A stretch of DNA of 41,290 bases from a virus (IMGVR_UViG_3300020045_007920:1-41290); one strand, 5' to 3'. Shown: positions 4,507-41,290, numbered from the stretch's first letter. The notes: generated by a model not told the origin, from the letters alone. Translations and numbers: made by a program.

Positions 4507-6186
4507 ATGTCAAAAGAAACACGAGTGATTGCTGGTAAAAAAGCGTTGGATATTATTAAAGTGGGTGTCAATTTGATTAACGATGCTGTAAAAGTTACGT
4601 TGGGACCAGAGGCGGGTACTACTTTAATGTATCGTACATATAATCGTGGTCCTAGAAACGTGGATGACGGTTATTACACAGCCGAGGTTATCGAGCCAAA
4701 AAATCCAGCGATAAAATTAGCATCAGACTTTTTCAAAGAGGGTATCAAAAAAACTAATCAGCGAGTGGGTGATGGAACGTCTACAACATCTGTGATTGGT
4801 GGCGCTCTATTCAATGATGTGTACAATCGTATGTATGCCAAATCATCTGGCTGGAGTACTAAGAAGTCAAACGAGGGGACATCACAAGGTAGTCCCATGA
4901 TATTAAAGAGGGAAATATTAGAGGAGGCTAAAAAGGTTAAGGAAATGATTAGAGCAGTCTCAAAACCTGTCAAAACTTTGGCAGACATAGAGAGGATTGC
5001 CATGATTTCGCTTGGAGATAATGAAGAAACGGCTAGGATCGTTGCAAAAATGGTGTGGGAGCTAGGGGTGGACAGTTCTGTGGACGTTGTAGAGGGTTAT
5101 AAAGGCGAGATTGAAACCGAAATGTTAAAAGGTTTTAGATTTCCTGCAAAAGTGTGTGGCAAAGCGTTTGTAAACAAGCCAGAACGCTATGAAATGGTTA
5201 TAGAGGACTGTCCAGTAGTGATAACAGACTATAAGATTGACAACGCTGGACAGATAGGTGTGCTTATTCAGAAGTTGGGTACACCAAAATTGGCTATCAT
5301 AGCTCCAGATTTTTCAGAAGATGTGCTAGTAGCTATGGTACTGTCAAGGAAAAACAATCTTAGTATTTACCCTGTTAAGGTGCCGTCACTCCGTACTGAT
5401 CAGTTCAAAGACTTGTCAATATATGCAGGCGCAAACTTCATCAGCAAGGAATCGGGTAACAAGATTGAAATGATAAGTAGTGTTGACCTAGGCTTTTTTG
5501 ACAAGTTGGTAGTCAAAGATACGGAGGCTAGGGAGGATGCAACTATGACAGGTGGCAAGGGTGAACGTAGTCAAGCTGTTAAAACACGTATTAAGGAGTT
5601 AGAAGGACAGCGTGACACTGAAACTAGAGAAAACTTTAAGAAGCTACTAGAGAGGCGCATAGCGTCTATGGCTTCTGCAGTAGGTGTGATTAGAGTAGGC
5701 TCACCTACTGATGCAGAAACATTGCCACTCAAATTGAAGATTGAGGACGTTGTCTACGCATGTAAGGCCTCTCTACGTGGTGGCTACGTCAAAGGCGGTG
5801 GACTGTGCCTACTTGAAATAGCCAAGGACTTGCCAAAGGATCACATACTGAAAGAGGCACTCATGGCTCCATACAACCAGATACAAGAAAATGCAGGGCG
5901 TACTTTAACTATAGGTAAGGACATTATTGACCCTACGGAGGCGGTCTACTATGCGGTGGAACACGCTACGTCTGTTGTGGCTTCTCTAATCACTGTTAAA
6001 AATCTTATTCCTGAGTATGATGACGTACAGCCGGGTGAGGGTTACCAGATGATTGCTGAACAATTAAAGATTATGGCAATCAGTGACAGAATACACAAAG
6101 GACAGTTACAAGAATCTCAAAGGGAGCAGGAGATGGATGCCATGGGAGGACTTACTGTGGAGGAAAAAATAACTTTGGAGCAGTAA
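4507..6186 (+). CDS. groEL: GroEL-like chaperonin (Cpn60 family)
   Basis: 559 aa with VKVTLGP, VGDGTSTT (GDGTTT variant), LLERRIASMASAVGVIRVG, KLKIED, GGYVKGGG and IIDPT motifs. Confidence 0.93.
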   Translation: MSKETRVIAGKKALDIIKVGVNLINDAVKVTLGPEAGTTLMYRTYNRGPRNVDDGYYTAEVIEPKNPAIKLASDFFKEGIKKTNQRVGDGTSTTSVIGGALFNDVYNRMYAKSSGWSTKKSNEGTSQGSPMILKREILEEAKKVKEMIRAVSKPVKTLADIERIAMISLGDNEETARIVAKMVWELGVDSSVDVVEGYKGEIETEMLKGFRFPAKVCGKAFVNKPERYEMVIEDCPVVITDYKIDNAGQIGVLIQKLGTPKLAIIAPDFSEDVLVAMVLSRKNNLSIYPVKVPSLRTDQFKDLSIYAGANFISKESGNKIEMISSVDLGFFDKLVVKDTEAREDATMTGGKGERSQAVKTRIKELEGQRDTETRENFKKLLERRIASMASAVGVIRVGSPTDAETLPLKLKIEDVVYACKASLRGGYVKGGGLCLLEIAKDLPKDHILKEALMAPYNQIQENAGRTLTIGKDIIDPTEAVYYAVEHATSVVASLITVKNLIPEYDDVQPGEGYQMIAEQLKIMAISDRIHKGQLQESQREQEMDAMGGLTVEEKITLEQ

Positions 6187-6522: not shown

Positions 6523-6933
6523 ATGCCTGCAAAGTCTAGTAAACCAACATTGAAACAACGATTAGCTCTAACTGCTTATCTAAGAAATGGTGGCCATATG
6601 ACTAAGGCTATGGAGGAAGCGGGCTACTCTCCTACCACCGCTAAAAGTCCTGGAACTAAGTTAACTCAAAAACCAGGCTTCATAGCATTGTGTGAAGAAA
6701 TGGGATTGACTGATAGTTTGCTTGTTAAAGCACTTGTCCAAGATATTAAGAAAAAGGCAGGAAATCGTAGAGCGGAATTGGAACTTGGTTTTAAAGTCAA
6801 AGGACACTTGAGGGAGAATGAGCCAGTAGGAAACACTTATAACACATTAAATGTCTTTACCGCAGAACAAACCAAACGAATTGCCGAAGGAGTACTTGAT
6901 GGTAATTCAACAATCGAGACAGAATTTGATTGA
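6523..6933 (+). CDS. terS: Terminase small subunit
   Basis: HTH-like TLKQR...YLRNGGHMTKAMEEAGYSPTTA; directly upstream of, and overlapping, terL. Confidence 0.8.
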   Translation: MPAKSSKPTLKQRLALTAYLRNGGHMTKAMEEAGYSPTTAKSPGTKLTQKPGFIALCEEMGLTDSLLVKALVQDIKKKAGNRRAELELGFKVKGHLRENEPVGNTYNTLNVFTAEQTKRIAEGVLDGNSTIETEFD

Positions 6934-9097
6934 TTACTCGATTGCTACGAACCCACAATACGTGCCTAATTGGCATCACAGAGTTATTGCACACCAACTG
7001 GAGAAAATTGCGGAACATGGAGATAGGGATTATAAAATCCTTATCGTGACTGTCCCACCCCGTCACGGAAAATCACAAGAATGTTCTATTGACTTCCCTT
7101 CTTGGTATCTTGGGAAGAATCCTAATAAGGAAATTATCACAGCCTCTTATGCAGGAGAGTTGGCGCAGTCTTTCGGAGGCAAAGCGAGGGAGAAAGTGGA
7201 CTCTCCTGCACACAAGTTGATATTCCCGGAAGTCTCGCTAAAGGAAGATGAGAAGGCTAAAGGAAGGTGGAGGACTAATTTAGGGGGGTCATATCTCTCT
7301 GTGGGTGTTGGTGGACCTATAACCGGTTTTGGCGCGAATTGTTTATTGATCGATGATCCGACAAAAAATCGTGAGGAAGCGGAAAGTTCTACCATGCGTG
7401 AAAAAGTGTGGGATTGGTTTACCTCGACTGCCTTCACTCGTTTGTCACCTAATGGGGTGGTTGTTTTAATTATGTGTATGACGGGCGATACTCCGGTTTT
7501 AATGGCAGATGGAACTGAACGAGCGCTACGCGACATTCGACAGGGTGATAAAGTCGCGACATATGATAAGGGTAAGCTGGCCACTTCAACCGTTCAAAAC
7601 TGGCAAAATAATGGTCTTGATAGAATCTTGAAAATCAAGACGACTTCTGGTAAAATAGTTAGATCGAATAAAAGACATCCGTTTCTTACTTATTTTAATG
7701 GAGAACTAAAATGGACACGAGCACAAAACTTAACTACAGCGTACAAAATCGTAACCGTAAGGGGCAGTGGGGAAAATGGAAAGGGAAAAAGTGCTTTAAG
7801 TGCGACCTACCAGTCGCTTGCAGAGGATACTGTGCTTCCCACTATGGCAAAAAAATGTGGGCTGATGGACATCGTCCGCCGTCAGTTAATAAGGAGTCAT
7901 GTCGTCAAAGGCGGATTAAGAATCGCTACGGCATTACGGTTGAGGAATATAACAAGCTTTTTGAGGCACAGAATGGACGATGCGCTATTTGTAATGAACC
8001 ACCAGGAGAAAATGTGCGTGCTCATTGGGGAGGAAAACTCTGTATTGACCACTGCTACAACACCAATAAAGTCAGAGGACTTCTCTGTAATGACTGTAAT
8101 CTTGCGGTCGGTTATGCAAAAACTGAAGTTACTGCTCTTGCTATTGCGAAATACATCAAACTTCACTCTTGAAGACATTGTTTCTATTGAAGAAGACGGG
8201 GTTGAAGATGTATTTGATATTCAAATTGAAAGGACAGAAAATTTTATCGCTAATGGGGTAGTAAGTCACAATACTCGTTGGCACATGGATGACTTAGCGG
8301 GACGCATCCTGGCTCATCCAACACTCTCTAAGCGTACCAAACTTATTCGCTTACCCGCGATTGCAGAGAAGGATGATAAGTTTAGAAAAGCCGGTGAACC
8401 TCTCTGGCCGACACGATACGACCTTGCTTCGCTGGAGGAAATAAAGAAGACTATTGGACCATACGATTGGGCAGCTTTGTATCAAGGCTCCCCTATTTTG
8501 ACGGAAGACCAGGAGTTTAGGACTGAGTGGATAAAAACTATTGATGAGGATGAAGTGGAGTCCATGTCTACCACCAACTACCTAACTGTGGACACCGCCA
8601 TGAGTAAACTCACACAGTCGGATTCATGCGGTTTCTGTGATAACTCGGTGGATAAGGAAAACTTCTGGAACATTGCGGCATGGGGGGCGAAACTTAATCC
8701 AGAGGAACTTGTGGACACTTTATTCGCGTTGCATGAAAAGAGAAAGTACACAGCCATAGGTCTTGAGAGGACTATGTACACGGATGGATTGAAACCATTT
8801 TTAGAATCTGAGCAGAGGAGACGTAACCGATTTCTACCTATTGTGGAACTTAAACATAATCAGACAGCAAAGGAGATTCGCATCAGAGGGCTTATTCCTA
8901 GATATGCGAGTGGTTCGATCAGACATATCAAAGGGCGTTGCAAAGCTCTTGAAGAAGAACAGGCATACTTCCCTAACGGGTTACACGATGACGTTCTCGA
9001 TGCTACTGCTTATCAGAGTCAGATAGTAACCGAACCAGAAAGTACGGTGTACATCCATGGAAGAAGTAGAAAGAGTAATTTATTACTTGATTGGTGA
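6851..9097 (+). CDS. terL: Terminase large subunit (748-aa precursor; 482 aa after removal of a 266-aa intein)
   Basis: Walker A VPPRHGKS, Walker B LLIDDP, coupling motif rebuilt by splicing (VVLIM|TRWHMDDL), nuclease motifs LTVDTA and HDDVLDA. Confidence 0.95.
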   Translation: MSLPQNKPNELPKEYLMVIQQSRQNLIDYSIATNPQYVPNWHHRVIAHQLEKIAEHGDRDYKILIVTVPPRHGKSQECSIDFPSWYLGKNPNKEIITASYAGELAQSFGGKAREKVDSPAHKLIFPEVSLKEDEKAKGRWRTNLGGSYLSVGVGGPITGFGANCLLIDDPTKNREEAESSTMREKVWDWFTSTAFTRLSPNGVVVLIMCMTGDTPVLMADGTERALRDIRQGDKVATYDKGKLATSTVQNWQNNGLDRILKIKTTSGKIVRSNKRHPFLTYFNGELKWTRAQNLTTAYKIVTVRGSGENGKGKSALSATYQSLAEDTVLPTMAKKCGLMDIVRRQLIRSHVVKGGLRIATALRLRNITSFLRHRMDDALFVMNHQEKMCVLIGEENSVLTTATTPIKSEDFSVMTVILRSVMQKLKLLLLLLRNTSNFTLEDIVSIEEDGVEDVFDIQIERTENFIANGVVSHNTRWHMDDLAGRILAHPTLSKRTKLIRLPAIAEKDDKFRKAGEPLWPTRYDLASLEEIKKTIGPYDWAALYQGSPILTEDQEFRTEWIKTIDEDEVESMSTTNYLTVDTAMSKLTQSDSCGFCDNSVDKENFWNIAAWGAKLNPEELVDTLFALHEKRKYTAIGLERTMYTDGLKPFLESEQRRRNRFLPIVELKHNQTAKEIRIRGLIPRYASGSIRHIKGRCKALEEEQAYFPNGLHDDVLDATAYQSQIVTEPESTVYIHGRSRKSNLLLDW
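7475..8272 (+). mobile_element. Intein in TerL (Cys1 to His-Asn, +1 Thr)
   Basis: Block A CMTGDTPVLMADG, block B VRSNKRHPFL, block F EDVFDIQIERTENFIANGV, block G SHN|T; 798 nt. Confidence 0.93.
7711..8172 (+). CDS. Endonuclease VII-type (His-Me finger) homing endonuclease, overprinted in an alternative frame inside the intein
   Basis: RYGITVEEYNKLFEAQNGRCAIC...LCIDHCYNTNKVRGLLCNDCNLAVG plus an N-terminal CFKC...GYCASHY Zn motif; GGAG at 7700-7703, 7 nt before the ATG; frame offset +2 from terL. Confidence 0.88.
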   Translation: MDTSTKLNYSVQNRNRKGQWGKWKGKKCFKCDLPVACRGYCASHYGKKMWADGHRPPSVNKESCRQRRIKNRYGITVEEYNKLFEAQNGRCAICNEPPGENVRAHWGGKLCIDHCYNTNKVRGLLCNDCNLAVGYAKTEVTALAIAKYIKLHS

Positions 9098-34208: not shown

Positions 34209-34387
34209 TTTCTTTCGTGAGGGAACGGTTTGTAATAACTTATCGCTCTGATATCCAACAAATTCAACACGCCTTTATCCGTCAAAATCTTATTCTTCTT
34301 ATGTTCCCTATACTTGGCAATAAGCTGACTACCATCCTTAAAAATAACTCTAATTTTAGCACCCGTGTAAAAGGAAGTGTGAATCAT
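34205..34387 (-). CDS. Small hypothetical protein
   Basis: 60 aa, ATGA-coupled on both sides. Confidence 0.7.
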   Translation of the reverse strand: MIHTSFYTGAKIRVIFKDGSQLIAKYREHKKNKILTDKGVLNLLDIRAISYYKPFPHERK

Positions 34388-35535
34388 CTCTTATATAAGT
34401 TAATCTGAAAATCCTCTTTTCTTTTAATTGAATCGTACACCGCTTGATCCACACTGTCACCTTCCGTTAAGAGATACACAAAGGTGGTCCGGGATGGTTT
34501 ATTCATACGCAAGAAACGACCGTTCATCTGCTCCCAAGAAGTATAACTATATGACATCGAGGCGTAAACACATACAGGAAAACTCGGAAGTTCAAAACCG
34601 ATACCACAGTCCGCTTGGATGAGAACGACTGCTCGATCAGCCTTTTCAGCCGATAGGACTATCGAGTCCCTGTCTTTAACATCCCCACGGATGATTGTAG
34701 GGGCATGTTTTTTGAGCAATTCAGCCAAAACATCTATCTGAGCGTTGTATCTACAAACGATAGCGATTTTTGGATTCTCCTCAACGAGTGAAACGATCCT
34801 GTCGTTCTTATCCCCTTGCTGTTCAATCTGATGCTCGGCCGTAAAGCGGACAATGGGGAGAGGGTCGTACGAATCTTTAATAGCCTGTCTTTGGCTTGAA
34901 TTGAGAGCAAAGTATTCAGGTTCACAATGTTGTTGCAAAGGTACATCCATTACATCAGCAATGTCCACCACTGACGCAATCTTCTTTGTGAGTTCAGCAA
35001 GCTGTTTCTCGCATCCTTTCTTCGGGACCGGCACAATACGGGGACCGAAACGAACTTGGTTAAAGAACATATAGTTAAACTTCTGCCAGTCTAGTTTGTA
35101 ACCGAGGTAGTAAGCAAGATTGTAAATGTTCCAAGGGCTGGAGGTGTGGACTGTGGCAGAACACGCTAAAAATCTTTGTACCTTATGTATTTTCAAGTAA
35201 TCACGGAGAGCTTTAGACATTTGTGATTTAAAGTGGGGAGTCAAAAAACCCGAATGAATTTCGTCACAAATTACTTGATCGTACTTCTTTAAAATTTTAT
35301 AGTCCCGTCTGAAAGTTTCTTTGGATATTACGTCTATCTGTATACCCCACTTCTCCATTTCTCTTTTCCAATTAGTCGTCAATGCTTTTGGCACAATGGT
35401 CAAAGTCGATCCTTTATAAAGTTTACTCCACTCTAAAGCCGTCCTAGTTTTAGAAGTGCCGCAAGACCATACCAAACAGGATTTATTTGGATTTTGTCCA
35501 AGAAAATAACGTTGATGTTCAAAAAGCGATTGCAT
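34384..35535 (-). CDS. Superfamily 2 (SNF2-like) helicase
   Basis: LFEHQ (Q motif), CGTSKT (Walker A variant), ICDEIH, SAT, GIGFEL and QMNGRFLR. Confidence 0.85.
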   Translation of the reverse strand: MQSLFEHQRYFLGQNPNKSCLVWSCGTSKTRTALEWSKLYKGSTLTIVPKALTTNWKREMEKWGIQIDVISKETFRRDYKILKKYDQVICDEIHSGFLTPHFKSQMSKALRDYLKIHKVQRFLACSATVHTSSPWNIYNLAYYLGYKLDWQKFNYMFFNQVRFGPRIVPVPKKGCEKQLAELTKKIASVVDIADVMDVPLQQHCEPEYFALNSSQRQAIKDSYDPLPIVRFTAEHQIEQQGDKNDRIVSLVEENPKIAIVCRYNAQIDVLAELLKKHAPTIIRGDVKDRDSIVLSAEKADRAVVLIQADCGIGFELPSFPVCVYASMSYSYTSWEQMNGRFLRMNKPSRTTFVYLLTEGDSVDQAVYDSIKRKEDFQINLYKR

Positions 35536-36136
35536 TTATTATTTTAGTTAAGTTTGTCATAACCTCTTTATTTTTAAATCTATATACTGTCCATCCATTT
35601 TTTTCTAAAAATAAAGTTTTTTTTCGATCCTGTTTTTGTCTTTCAAGAGCTGAGTGACTACTTCCATCAACTTCAATAGCAATCTTTTTTCCAGGGTTAG
35701 CTATATCAATTTTATAGCATGTCGGATACTTATTTTTAGAAATTTTTCGTAAATGTGTAGCAACGGAATGTTCTCCGTACCACCCATTACCTAACGCCGA
35801 CAAAAGTATCCTTTGGGGGGCAGACATTTCTTTACCGTTACCTCCCCTAACCATAGGTCTAGTCCCTAACATTTTATTAGTAATCATTATTTTTTCTTTG
35901 ACCCCTTTCATCCATACAGGATTATTTTTCTTCATTCTTTTAGCAGATTCCTCTTTTCGTAAACAGCCGCAACTTCTTGTATATCCCTTAACAAGACTAT
36001 GTTTATAAACATCTTTTATGTTTCCACAAATACATATACATTTAAAAAAAATCAATTTTCTTCCACTAGAGAAACTTCTGTGAAAAGATTTTAATACCTT
36101 TAATCGCGCGAACCGCTTATTTATGAATTCATCCAT
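35519..36136 (-). CDS. Free-standing homing-type endonuclease with a DUF559/Vsr-like nuclease domain
   Basis: N-terminal CICICGN...TRSCGC; C-terminal IDIANPGKKIAIEVDGSSH...QDRKKTLFLEKNGWTVYRF; ATG 36136 lies 6 nt after TATAAT (36148-36143). Confidence 0.8.
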   Translation of the reverse strand: MDEFINKRFARLKVLKSFHRSFSSGRKLIFFKCICICGNIKDVYKHSLVKGYTRSCGCLRKEESAKRMKKNNPVWMKGVKEKIMITNKMLGTRPMVRGGNGKEMSAPQRILLSALGNGWYGEHSVATHLRKISKNKYPTCYKIDIANPGKKIAIEVDGSSHSALERQKQDRKKTLFLEKNGWTVYRFKNKEVMTNLTKIINAIAF

Positions 36137-36186
36137 GTGTACATTATACACCTAAGACTAAATAATGCAATAATACATTACTTTGC

Positions 36187-39290: not shown

Positions 39291-39938
39291 TCATAATCCA
39301 ATTTTCTTCATGTAATCAAAATAAGTCTTGTCAATCTCGAAGCCAATATATTTTCGCCCTAGATTTTTGCACGCAAGAAGTATGGTACCACTTCCTGCAA
39401 ATGGATCTATTACTACCCCCCCCACAGGTACAGTAAGCAAGATTATTCTTTCTGCCAGTTTATATGGTATAGGACAAGGGTGTGGATTATCTTTTTTACT
39501 TACGTTCTTTACTTGATTTATCTCCCACCAATCGTATAGTTTTGCCTGTCTGCCATCGGCTATTCTTTTTGCAATACGTTTATCGGTGGGATTTTTATAT
39601 GGTTGTCCGAGTAAAGACATATTTGGCTTGCAATTCCACCATGTTATTTGCCTATGTTGTTTTGCGGTATTGCTGTTATATACCCACGCTACAGATTGTT
39701 CGCACCAATCAGCGTTCATAACTTTTGAAATAATATTGGCTGTTTCTTCTGGGTATGAAATTATTACAGATTGATACCCACCAAAAGCATCCTGTAGCAT
39801 CTGGCTATACTCATCTAAAGTTAATTCATCGGAATATTCTCTATAATGGTACCCTTGATTGTATGGAGGATCAGAAATGACATAGGCATTGCCATCAAAC
39901 TTATCTAAATGATTTCTAAAATCGTCGTGAATTATCAT
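39291..39938 (-). CDS. Orphan DNA methyltransferase (N6-A/N4-C, beta class)
   Basis: SDPPYN...HPCPIP...VIDPFAGSGT...YIGFEID. Confidence 0.92.
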   Translation of the reverse strand: MIIHDDFRNHLDKFDGNAYVISDPPYNQGYHYREYSDELTLDEYSQMLQDAFGGYQSVIISYPEETANIISKVMNADWCEQSVAWVYNSNTAKQHRQITWWNCKPNMSLLGQPYKNPTDKRIAKRIADGRQAKLYDWWEINQVKNVSKKDNPHPCPIPYKLAERIILLTVPVGGVVIDPFAGSGTILLACKNLGRKYIGFEIDKTYFDYMKKIGL

Positions 39939-40147
39939 TGGAGTAATTTACTTACCATTTCAAGAGTGACATCCCTGTAATATTTAGCCTTGTTATTTTT
40001 GATAACTCTAACTGTTCCTGTAGTAAACCAGTAGTCAAAAATATCCCCGTCTTTTTTGTATCTCAAATAGTATTTATCAGGCTGGACTTCGGCTAGTTCC
40101 CAACTATGATCACTTAGGGTGCATTTTAATATTTCTATATCAATCAT
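39935..40147 (-). CDS. Small hypothetical protein
   Basis: 70 aa, ATGA-coupled on both sides. Confidence 0.7.
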   Translation of the reverse strand: MIDIEILKCTLSDHSWELAEVQPDKYYLRYKKDGDIFDYWFTTGTVRVIKNNKAKYYRDVTLEMVSKLLQ

Positions 40148-41290
40148 GAGTTTAAGTGTGTTATTGCGTTCATAAGGACATCATCTGCTACTGATGGTTC
40201 GGGATCATCTCTAAACCATCTCCATGCACGAACACCGTCGCGCATAACATTCTTTTTTTCAAGTTTCAGATGTGTTTTTAACACATCTGCTATGGACATT
40301 TCGTCCCATTTTGTCATGGCTTTCATAGGATGACCTGCGTAAAGGGCATCTCTATAAACCTGATGAGTAGTAATACCCTCGTTTCTATTGTCTGATGTTA
40401 GTTTATTGAAGTACCAGTCAGCAATTAAACCTGAGTTTGGGTCTTGTATCCTTCTCGCCTCCTGCGCTTCTCTAGTCTCCTCCTTAGGAAACTCGTATAT
40501 GGTTTCCTTTTTGTTTACCACACGGTGATATGCCTCTGCGAATATTTGGTTTCTATTCTTCTCTAACCACTCTACGTTAGCCTCTGGTAAGACTACTGTC
40601 ACAGGTAGCCATCTGCGGTTGCCTGTTTCGTCTTTCAAGTATTCCGTCTGGTTCGTGGTCATGGCAAAAACACATCTGCGTGGAAAGTCTTGCGTAGCTC
40701 GCTCGTATGGCGTACGGAAACGATCGTTTTGCATGGTGATGATAGCTTTCATGCGTTTGACTTCTGTTCGGGTCAATGTCTCACCCTCTGAAAACTCAAT
40801 AATAGACTTGCCTGCAAACTGCATAAAGAAGTCCTTAGAATCCGTAGACATAACCGTCTCCGTGTGCCAATCTCCACCTAGTATTGAGAGTGACGTAGAC
40901 TTTTTAGCTCCCTGCTCGCCTTCTAGTACCAGTACGAAGTCGAACTTACAACCGGGTTCTACAAGCCTCTTCACCATGCCTTTTATCCAGTTGGAGCCTA
41001 CTGCACGATGATACTTGTCATCTGGCGCACCATAGACAGTGGATAGCCACGTATCTAAGCGTGGTTCCTTGTCCCACACGAGGGCTTTCATGTAGTCTAT
41101 TGCTGAATCTATAGCGTTTTCCTTTGATACCTTGATGATTGCGTCATACACCATCTCTTTACCTACCTTAGCAAAACAGGGGAATAAGATTGATATAGCC
41201 GTCTGAATACTCACAGCGTCATTATCCTCTAACTGTCTCCACACGTTTGTCGTGGTAGGCTTTATTTCAAAAACATTCTTGAACGTGTCA
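40144..41290 (-). CDS. C-terminal VapE-family P-loop helicase domain of the primase-polymerase (continues from 1-1146)
   Basis: WDKEPRLD...PGCKFDFVLVLEGEQGAKKST...IIEFSE...FRTPY...FPRRCVFAMTTN..YLKDETGNRRW. Confidence 0.9.
   Translation of the reverse strand, partial: DTFKNVFEIKPTTTNVWRQLEDNDAVSIQTAISILFPCFAKVGKEMVYDAIIKVSKENAIDSAIDYMKALVWDKEPRLDTWLSTVYGAPDDKYHRAVGSNWIKGMVKRLVEPGCKFDFVLVLEGEQGAKKSTSLSILGGDWHTETVMSTDSKDFFMQFAGKSIIEFSEGETLTRTEVKRMKAIITMQNDRFRTPYERATQDFPRRCVFAMTTNQTEYLKDETGNRRWLPVTVVLPEANVEWLEKNRNQIFAEAYHRVVNKKETIYEFPKEETREAQEARRIQDPNSGLIADWYFNKLTSDNRNEGITTHQVYRDALYAGHPMKAMTKWDEMSIADVLKTHLKLEKKNVMRDGVRAWRWFRDDPEPSVADDVLMNAITHLNS
41170..41290. repeat. Terminal direct repeat, right copy (circular overlap)
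   Basis: Identical to 1-121. Confidence 0.97.

Follow-up and report, generated by a model that had tools for sequence, protein, structure and literature searches.

Introduction

The closest described systems are inteins with an "endonuclease VII-like HEN in frame 3", reported in 2025 (bioRxiv 10.1101/2025.01.02.630785). The preprint regards the architecture as rare and names four phages: Affeca, Keitabear, Sedona and Angelicage. An intein at the same type of site was described in 2016: the TerL6-f intein of mycobacteriophage clusters B3/B4 (Chandler gp6) lies in the ATPase coupling (C) motif and spliced in a reporter (PMC5050341). The available text of that paper mentions neither a second frame nor a trial of the nuclease activity of the Chandler intein. 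On the nuclease side, the nearest described group is the DHHRN family, with F-CphI and the motif of T4 Endo VII (PMC6083498). F-CphI is a free-standing enzyme. According to the same source, the second histidine of the motif (H43 in T4 Endo VII) is conserved in most family members, not in all, and the H43T mutant of T4 Endo VII is inactive.

A second same-strand frame has been used elsewhere. It is found in a cyanobacterial dnaX intein with an out-of-frame HE (bioRxiv 10.64898/2026.09.14.751524), which is LAGLIDADG-like and lies in another host gene. It is also found in the hidden HNH of ShiLan (PMC11855218), nested in an in-frame insertion that has no splicing domain and again belongs to a different host gene. 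Control of nuclease synthesis has been described for T4 I-TevI, I-TevII, I-TevIII and segB and for Aeh1 mobE, where a stem-loop masks the ribosome site and a nearby promoter skips the 5′ arm (PMC2988022). That control was shown experimentally and relies on T4 late promoters.

Here, we analyzed a contig of 41,290 bp from an uncultured phage (40% GC, terminal repeat of 121 bp), which as a whole is referred to as the window. Affeca, Keitabear, Sedona and Angelicage were the top tblastn matches for the nuclease found in it and among the top matches for the intein. These four Gordonia phages share the host gene, the insertion site, the +2 frame and the nuclease type with this locus, at 52-54% identity for the nuclease and 39-42% for the intein. 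Unlike them, the present copy comes from an uncultured phage of 40% GC and carries Tyr116 in its nuclease. The architecture, the nuclease type and this very family were already published in 2025, so the locus itself is no discovery. What it adds is the breadth of the family, a connection to a splicing experiment already published, a fixed start codon and a predicted promoter-hairpin switch. We consider it highly probable that the locus is a terL intein with an overprinted endonuclease VII-type gene in the +2 frame, in which the intein likely splices and the nuclease, likely made as a separate protein, would cut empty terL and thereby spread the element.

The terL intein

The terL gene (6851..9097, + strand) codes for a terminase large subunit precursor of 748 aa (Terminase_6N; phrog_38, E 9e-90). 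A first-pass annotation had assigned an intein of 266 aa to the coupling motif of TerL, which was confirmed. The intein occupies 7475..8272 (+), which corresponds to precursor residues 209-474, and its frame contains no stop codon. Its ends are of the class 1 type: Cys1, His265-Asn266 and a +1 Thr (8273). The N-extein (6851..7474, +) comprises the ATPase domain up to the residue preceding the coupling-motif Thr, which is the TerL6-f C-motif site of PMC5050341. The C-extein (8273..9097, +) begins with Thr-Arg-Trp-His, and the product after predicted splicing has 482 aa.

The N-terminal splicing region (residues 1-99; 7475..7771, +) has a Hint fold with AF2 pLDDT of 81-97 per block, and the C-terminal splicing region (8156..8272, +) contains Asp248, His265 and Asn266. 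Between them lies a stop-free linker (residues 100-227; 7772..8155, +) that is predicted to be disordered. In the AlphaFold model of the intein, both ends form a confident Hint fold and residues 100-220 have pLDDT below 50; a Foldseek search with this model led to DnaB inteins (E 4e-10). The central part of the intein had been described as free of any recognisable motif, and a Pfam search of its frame over 7790-8176 indeed gave no match. C1, H68 (block B), D248 (block F) and N266 were unchanged across 38 aligned inteins. The usual block B consensus of inteins is TxxH; in this intein block B reads NxRH.

The Chandler intein is 38% identical to this one over its full length and likewise holds the nuclease in +2, where it starts with GTG. 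The present comparison thereby assigns it to the family described here. By analogy with this relative, the intein of the window likely splices. Ribosomes on terL could traverse the whole intein frame, as can be read directly from its codons, and the intein would then splice out, with the disordered linker of about 128 aa discarded and a working terminase formed.

The nested nuclease and its catalytic core

Profile searches of both frames, suggested in the first-pass annotation, gave Pfam Intein_splicing (E 1e-17) for the intein frame and Pfam Endonuclease_7 (E 1e-18) for the +2 frame. The latter contains, as had been proposed, a complete gene for an endonuclease VII/DHHRN-type protein of 153 aa (7711..8172, +). 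The third frame is closed by 16 stops across the nuclease. A phmmer comparison of the nuclease with T4 Endo VII gave E 2e-7. The structure model had a mean pLDDT of 87, and its top Foldseek matches, both weak, were T4 Endo VII (E 0.008) and Hpy99I (E 0.09). The earlier proposal that the nuclease starts only after the N-terminal splicing region has to be corrected, because roughly the first 20 codons are shared with the Hint fold, from Trp80 to about residue 99 (pLDDT >80). At the other end, the nuclease stop codon straddles intein codons Leu232-Glu233.

The protein has an N-terminal CCCH motif (C28, C31, C41, H44) and a core of C91, C94, D113, H114, Y116, R122, C126, C129 and N130. It thus shares the CxxC...DH...R...CxxCN core of the DHHRN family (PMC6083498), with D113, H114, R122 and N130 as the equivalents of T4 D40, H41, R54 and N62. 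These four residues and the four core cysteines were present in 66/66 members compared. It differs from F-CphI in being nested in an intein, in its N-terminal CCCH motif and, for this copy, in lacking the second histidine. The zinc and DH motif noted earlier stands, with one refinement at the second histidine: position 116 is His in 63 of the 66 members and Tyr here (D113-H114-C-Y116). Judged by its motif, the nuclease family fits DHHRN, and this copy is a variant rather than a canonical member.

The tyrosine occupies the position of T4 H43. Since the H43T exchange inactivates T4 Endo VII, the nuclease of this copy may by analogy be weakened and have little or no cutting activity. This raises a second reading, in which the architecture is the same and the nuclease is produced, though with poor cutting or none, so that this copy has lost homing and is heading toward a mini-intein. 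In addition to the substitution itself, a weak hairpin in this copy and the decay stages found in the family (both described below) speak for it. It is opposed by the remaining core residues, the start codon and the 10/12 promoter, all of which are intact in the Tyr116 copy. Moreover, Tyr stands at the same position in a second element (L084), and a histidine conserved in most rather than all DHHRN members (PMC6083498) also weakens the case. We regard the loss of homing by this copy as possible, at clearly less than an even chance.

Family survey

Related loci were collected in two ways. In a search of viral contigs with the nuclease, the best 80 of 237 related stretches were used; an intein search added 5 loci and five cultured phages were added, giving 90 loci, of which 5 were cut by contig ends. 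All 86 complete inteins (85 loci and the one in the window) shared the coupling-motif site, had an intein frame free of stops and carried nuclease sequence in +2. An early nuclease stop was present in three records of a single element (L081-083). In none of these five cultured genomes is the nuclease annotated, because it is hidden within terL.

To avoid selecting on the nuclease, the second search was performed with the splicing domain alone. The best 80 of 477 viral matches were taken, together with 37 genome matches, 14 of them close. In this set, 95 family loci were examined (L102, L107-L200), and 92 were complete. In each of the 92, the nuclease sequence lay in +2; in no case was it in the intein frame. 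Both frames were intact in 84 by script and in 1 more whose start was checked separately. The others comprised one early nuclease stop (L188), four mini-intein records (L147/153/157 and L174; 164 and 169 aa) that kept nuclease remnants, and two records with a broken intein frame (L170, L176). The last two were excluded from the mobility, tree, promoter, hairpin and operator tests. Three unrelated inteins (L206, L218, L222) were left out of the family counts.

The two sets overlap and together contain 178 complete records, or 123 non-redundant elements. The question of whether homologous inteins keep both frames open, raised in the first-pass annotation, can be answered for this set: the nuclease was in +2 in 178/178 records, and the intein frame was open in 176/178. 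Canonical inteins have an in-frame HEN; in the present family this arrangement occurs in 0/178 complete records. The architecture thus occurs in 123 or more distinct elements. It also reaches into genome bins from several phyla, in records that bear the labels Anaerolineae, Gallionellaceae, Sulfuritalea, Oribacterium, Dysosmobacter, Mycolicibacterium, Opitutaceae, Caulobacteraceae and further ones. Among uncultured phages, the family is common rather than rare. Two family loci carry a second intein, which has the same layout with an HNH nuclease.

An assembly artefact, in which two compensating indels shift an in-frame nuclease out of frame, is excluded at the level of the family by the same frame relation in all 178 complete records, finished genomes of cultured phages included; for this copy, its probability is negligible. 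A check of sequencing reads turned up one run, with a 0.06 share of words; it consisted of short contig pieces from relatives, with no indels recorded and no coverage across the locus, and so bears neither on this copy nor on expression. No family locus had an in-frame nuclease. In-frame fusions appeared only as two protein records, P0123 among 7 longer matches and P0098 among the 120 near-length matches listed. Both are one-member clusters from a single contig, which makes sequence error or a pseudogene just as probable as a genuine state. The decay route seen in the family leads through stop codons and deletions to mini-inteins. Given this route and just two single-contig fusion records, the proposal that out-of-frame nucleases move into frame at a later stage has little support.

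Selection on the two frames

The conservation in the nuclease frame that the first-pass annotation had anticipated was observed. In 47 pairs of at least 75% identity, the median pN/pS was 0.19 for the nuclease frame, compared with 1.66 for the intein frame. Over 121 core codons of 66 nucleases, entropy by nuclease codon position was 0.81, 0.68 and 1.55, with the peak at the third position. Selection hence acts on the nuclease frame. When nucleases were recoded synonymously, 197 intein-frame stops were expected over 66 elements and 0 were seen. For the copy in the window, 3.6 stops were expected, and only 2% of random synonymous recodings left the intein frame open. Judged by these substitution patterns, the linker in the intein frame is a by-product of the nuclease frame and is only kept stop-free.

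Probable start codon and ribosome site of the nuclease

The nuclease start is formed by the third base of codon 79 (Lys79 here) and the first two bases of the Trp80 codon. At this invariant Trp80 position, ATG or GTG was present in 123/123 non-redundant elements. Residue 79 is variable (K, E, Q, R, T, I, V, S, A). Among 67 elements, where a synonym ending in a pyrimidine was possible for codon 79, the codon ended in a purine in 19/19 cases vs 8.9 expected (nominal P 3e-7, with relatedness ignored). The corresponding base was C or T in all four unrelated inteins in which the motif was found.

The own ATG and GGAG claimed for the nuclease were both found. A Shine-Dalgarno-like GGAG (7700..7703, +), supplied by codons Gly76-Glu77, lies 7 nt upstream of the ATG, and the nearly invariant Gly76 yields a Shine-Dalgarno-like run across the family. 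The family value of -5.7 kcal/mol is modestly stronger than that of recoded sequences (-5.1 kcal/mol), and this copy is not above the null. From this conservation, we infer that the nuclease would initiate at the ATG/GTG of the Trp80 codon with the Gly76 Shine-Dalgarno. The fixation of the start within an invariant Trp80 codon appears to be a new detail.

The fixed start bears on another way of making the nuclease, namely a programmed -1 frameshift from the terL frame that fuses it to the N-extein and the N-terminal half of the intein. A G GGA AAA heptamer does occur in the intein frame of this copy, 72 nt past the ATG, and the P0123 record is a fusion of this kind. Slippery heptamers, however, occur in 37/67 elements at scattered positions, which makes frameshifting unlikely, and ATG or GTG is kept in 123/123 elements; P0123, for its part, is a single cluster member from one contig. 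We therefore judge frameshifting very improbable.

Predicted promoter

A sigma70-like promoter for the nuclease is predicted inside the intein at 7628..7656 (+), with the -35 box at 7628-7633 and the -10 box at 7651-7656. It has 10/12 matches and an extended -10 TG in this copy. Across the family, a score of at least 9/12 was reached by 37/120 elements vs 14.3 expected, and 24 of these were at a single position. The Gly codon that supplies the -10 T ended in T in 86/120 elements (32 expected), while control Gly codons ended in T in 22/120 and 15/115. A second synonymous base of the promoter boxes was also biased, with 86 of 116 vs 47 expected. I-TevI has an operator-like copy of its homing site over the promoter; no such copy was found here (best 16-mer match 10.05 vs 10.01 for controls; 40/120 elements).

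Predicted hairpin and switch

A stem-loop is predicted in the RNA at 7645..7703 (+), with an outer stem that pairs the Shine-Dalgarno sequence; it is weak in this copy and strong at the family level. The inner stem spans the Asn-x-Arg-His-Pro-Phe-Leu codons. For the 55 nt preceding the start, the MFE was -16.1 vs -11.3 for recoded nulls (n=105). The inner stem showed paired changes, with 66 Watson-Crick pairs vs 46.7 in shuffled data, and 41 vs 29.6 (82 elements). Native arms outpaired GC-matched swapped arms in 94/120 elements and in 46/64 divergent representatives, compared with 24-30 of 64 for arm-swap controls at four offsets. RNAalifold, applied to 105 ungapped sequences for a single consensus, returned no structure, probably because there are two pairing registers; folding of each sequence and swap tests were used instead.

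With a transcript starting about 48 nt upstream of the ATG, the ribosome site became cheaper to open (5.0 instead of 8.8 kcal/mol), and a scan of start points had a local minimum at -48. In nulls the cost went from 7.6 to 7.5, a shift of 0.1 against 3.8 in native sequences. The promoter position, the transcript start and the hairpin arms were picked after the data had been seen, and the sequences are related, so the P values are optimistic. Of four cultured actinophage members tested, three (L088-L090: Chandler, phi1_186018 and Vincenzo) showed the switch in reverse. In the window, the hairpin has -8 kcal/mol and is no stronger than shuffles (z +0.95; swap rank 0.47), and the predicted switch amounts to just 1.2 kcal/mol. 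This weakness is one of the points in favour of lost homing in this copy.

Taken as a prediction, the stem-loop would mask the ribosome site in the long terL mRNA, and the sigma70-like promoter within the 5′ arm of the stem would give a short transcript with the ribosome site freed. Such a geometry has been reviewed for T4 I-TevI and Aeh1 mobE (PMC2988022); here, it is predicted only, involves a sigma70-like promoter and lies within splicing-domain codons. The -35 and -10 boxes fall in residues 52-61, and the stem-loop covers the block B His-Pro-Phe-Leu codons. We consider it an even question whether a full expression cassette of promoter, stem-loop switch and start is contained in the codons of the splicing domain. 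If it is, about 100 nt would encode a catalytic fold, a promoter, an RNA switch and the start of a second gene together. Such a cassette would also account for a stable out-of-frame state across a large phage family, as opposed to a passing stage on the way to an in-frame fusion. The promoter and the hairpin are predictions at the family level and appear to be new details: the main text of bioRxiv 10.1101/2025.01.02.630785 gave 0 matches for a start codon, promoter, hairpin or frameshift analysis, and the promoter, hairpin and start claim is likewise absent from the main text of bioRxiv 10.64898/2026.09.14.751524. As to how hidden nucleases are translated, the positions of the start, ribosome site, promoter and hairpin offer a precise and testable answer.

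Mobility

Among 16 relatives of the N-extein of this TerL, 15 were empty at the site. The Affeca region was matched by 99 phage records, 6 of them with the Affeca intein allele; among the 60 matches listed, 12 had a Fosterous-type allele and 42 an empty-site span. Affeca and Fosterous have exteins that are 99% identical, with splicing domains at 69%. Conversely, L001 and L013 share 45% identity in the exteins and 88% in the splicing domains. Strongly discordant pairs thus occur both ways, and the splicing domains were more alike than the exteins in 98% of pairs from 115 elements. Extein and splicing-domain trees rejected one another (AU p 0.002 and 1e-6), a test that is supportive only, since it was run with fast trees on 40 of the 115 rows and with 2000 replicates, at which the program issued a warning.

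These data bear on the view that the nuclease has been domesticated by the phage, as a resolvase or as an aid to packaging, rather than serving in homing. Among its relatives of known structure, the T4 Holliday-junction resolvase is the nearest, and the nuclease is located in a packaging gene, as such a role would suggest. Yet close phage relatives do entirely without the nuclease, which moves with the intein across divergent terminases and decays in some lineages; the extra N-terminal CCCH motif and the conserved insertion site also argue for a homing enzyme. Domestication is accordingly very improbable.

The element sits at a single site in very divergent terminases. Together with nuclease-frame selection, the stop-free linker and the empty alleles, this supports the dual-coded mobile element proposed in the first-pass annotation. 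As far as the analysis reached, none of the findings that the annotation had named as counter-evidence turned up. The empty alleles and the discordant identities are indirect pointers to a possible site-specific cleavage of the empty allele. In a co-infection, the nuclease would cut the empty coupling-motif site, and repair would copy the intein in. The bases of the +1 Thr codon and of the next Trp and Asp codons were invariant among hosts, which fits a target in conserved codons, though protein constraint predicts the same. In the cultured Gordonia phages, empty alleles are ~96% identical to Affeca, and the empty terL of Fitzgerald is 795 bp shorter than that of Affeca. Such near-identical empty alleles make homing directly testable in these phages.

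Shortened and lengthened members of the family

The related intein loci, which were collected from viral contigs, genomes and cultured phages, vary in length. Four of them are mini-inteins that have arisen by deletion, with a length of 164 aa in L147, L153 and L157 and 169 aa in L174. In each, the start of the overprinted nuclease gene is retained together with a C- or N-terminal remnant of the nuclease. These retained parts mark the four loci as decayed forms of the family rather than pre-invasion ancestors. The longer subfamily (L034, L036, L071, L090 and others) comprises inteins of ~296-341 aa with nucleases of ~184-236 aa, which carry one or two additional N-terminal Cys-rich repeats. The intein frame is not closed across the added DNA in this subfamily.

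An additional intein was observed at another, upstream site within the same terL gene in L030 (1113-2096) and L077 (906-1907). The +1 frame of these second inteins is open over 286-307 codons and, judged by eye, reads like a zinc-finger HNH nuclease. Thus, the terL genes of L030 and L077 appear to hold two different overprinted nucleases each.

Plasmid, archaeal-bin and fusion records

A nuclease match with 56% identity (H81) lies beneath a terminase gene in a Streptomyces plasmid record (NZ_CP108377.1:77935-78297); this match probably belongs to the family, with a phage-plasmid as its carrier. Another member, L189, comes from an archaeal bin, where its contig is 3.9 kb long. It is similar in length and flanks to the viral locus L116, and the contig is possibly a misbinned phage contig. 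In two database protein records, each derived from a single contig, the nuclease is joined in frame either to the C-terminal intein half and the C-extein (P0098) or to the N-extein and the N-terminal intein half (P0123). Such fusions may represent an error or a pseudogene, or else a rare intermediate on the way to a split intein.

Other genes and ends of the window

The window carries a 121-bp terminal direct repeat (1-121 and 41170-41290), and the contig therefore probably represents an entire phage genome that was assembled as a circle. For most structural genes of the plus arm, no PHROG match was found. A GroEL-like chaperonin gene (4507-6186; Pfam Cpn60_TCP1, phrog_5725) is located immediately upstream of the terminase genes. 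The minus arm encodes a helicase (34384-35535), a DNA methyltransferase (39291-39938) and a primase/helicase (40144-41244), all on the minus strand. The start of the helicase gene is overlapped by a free-standing ORF (35519-36151, minus strand) matching an HNH endonuclease PHROG (E 4e-13).
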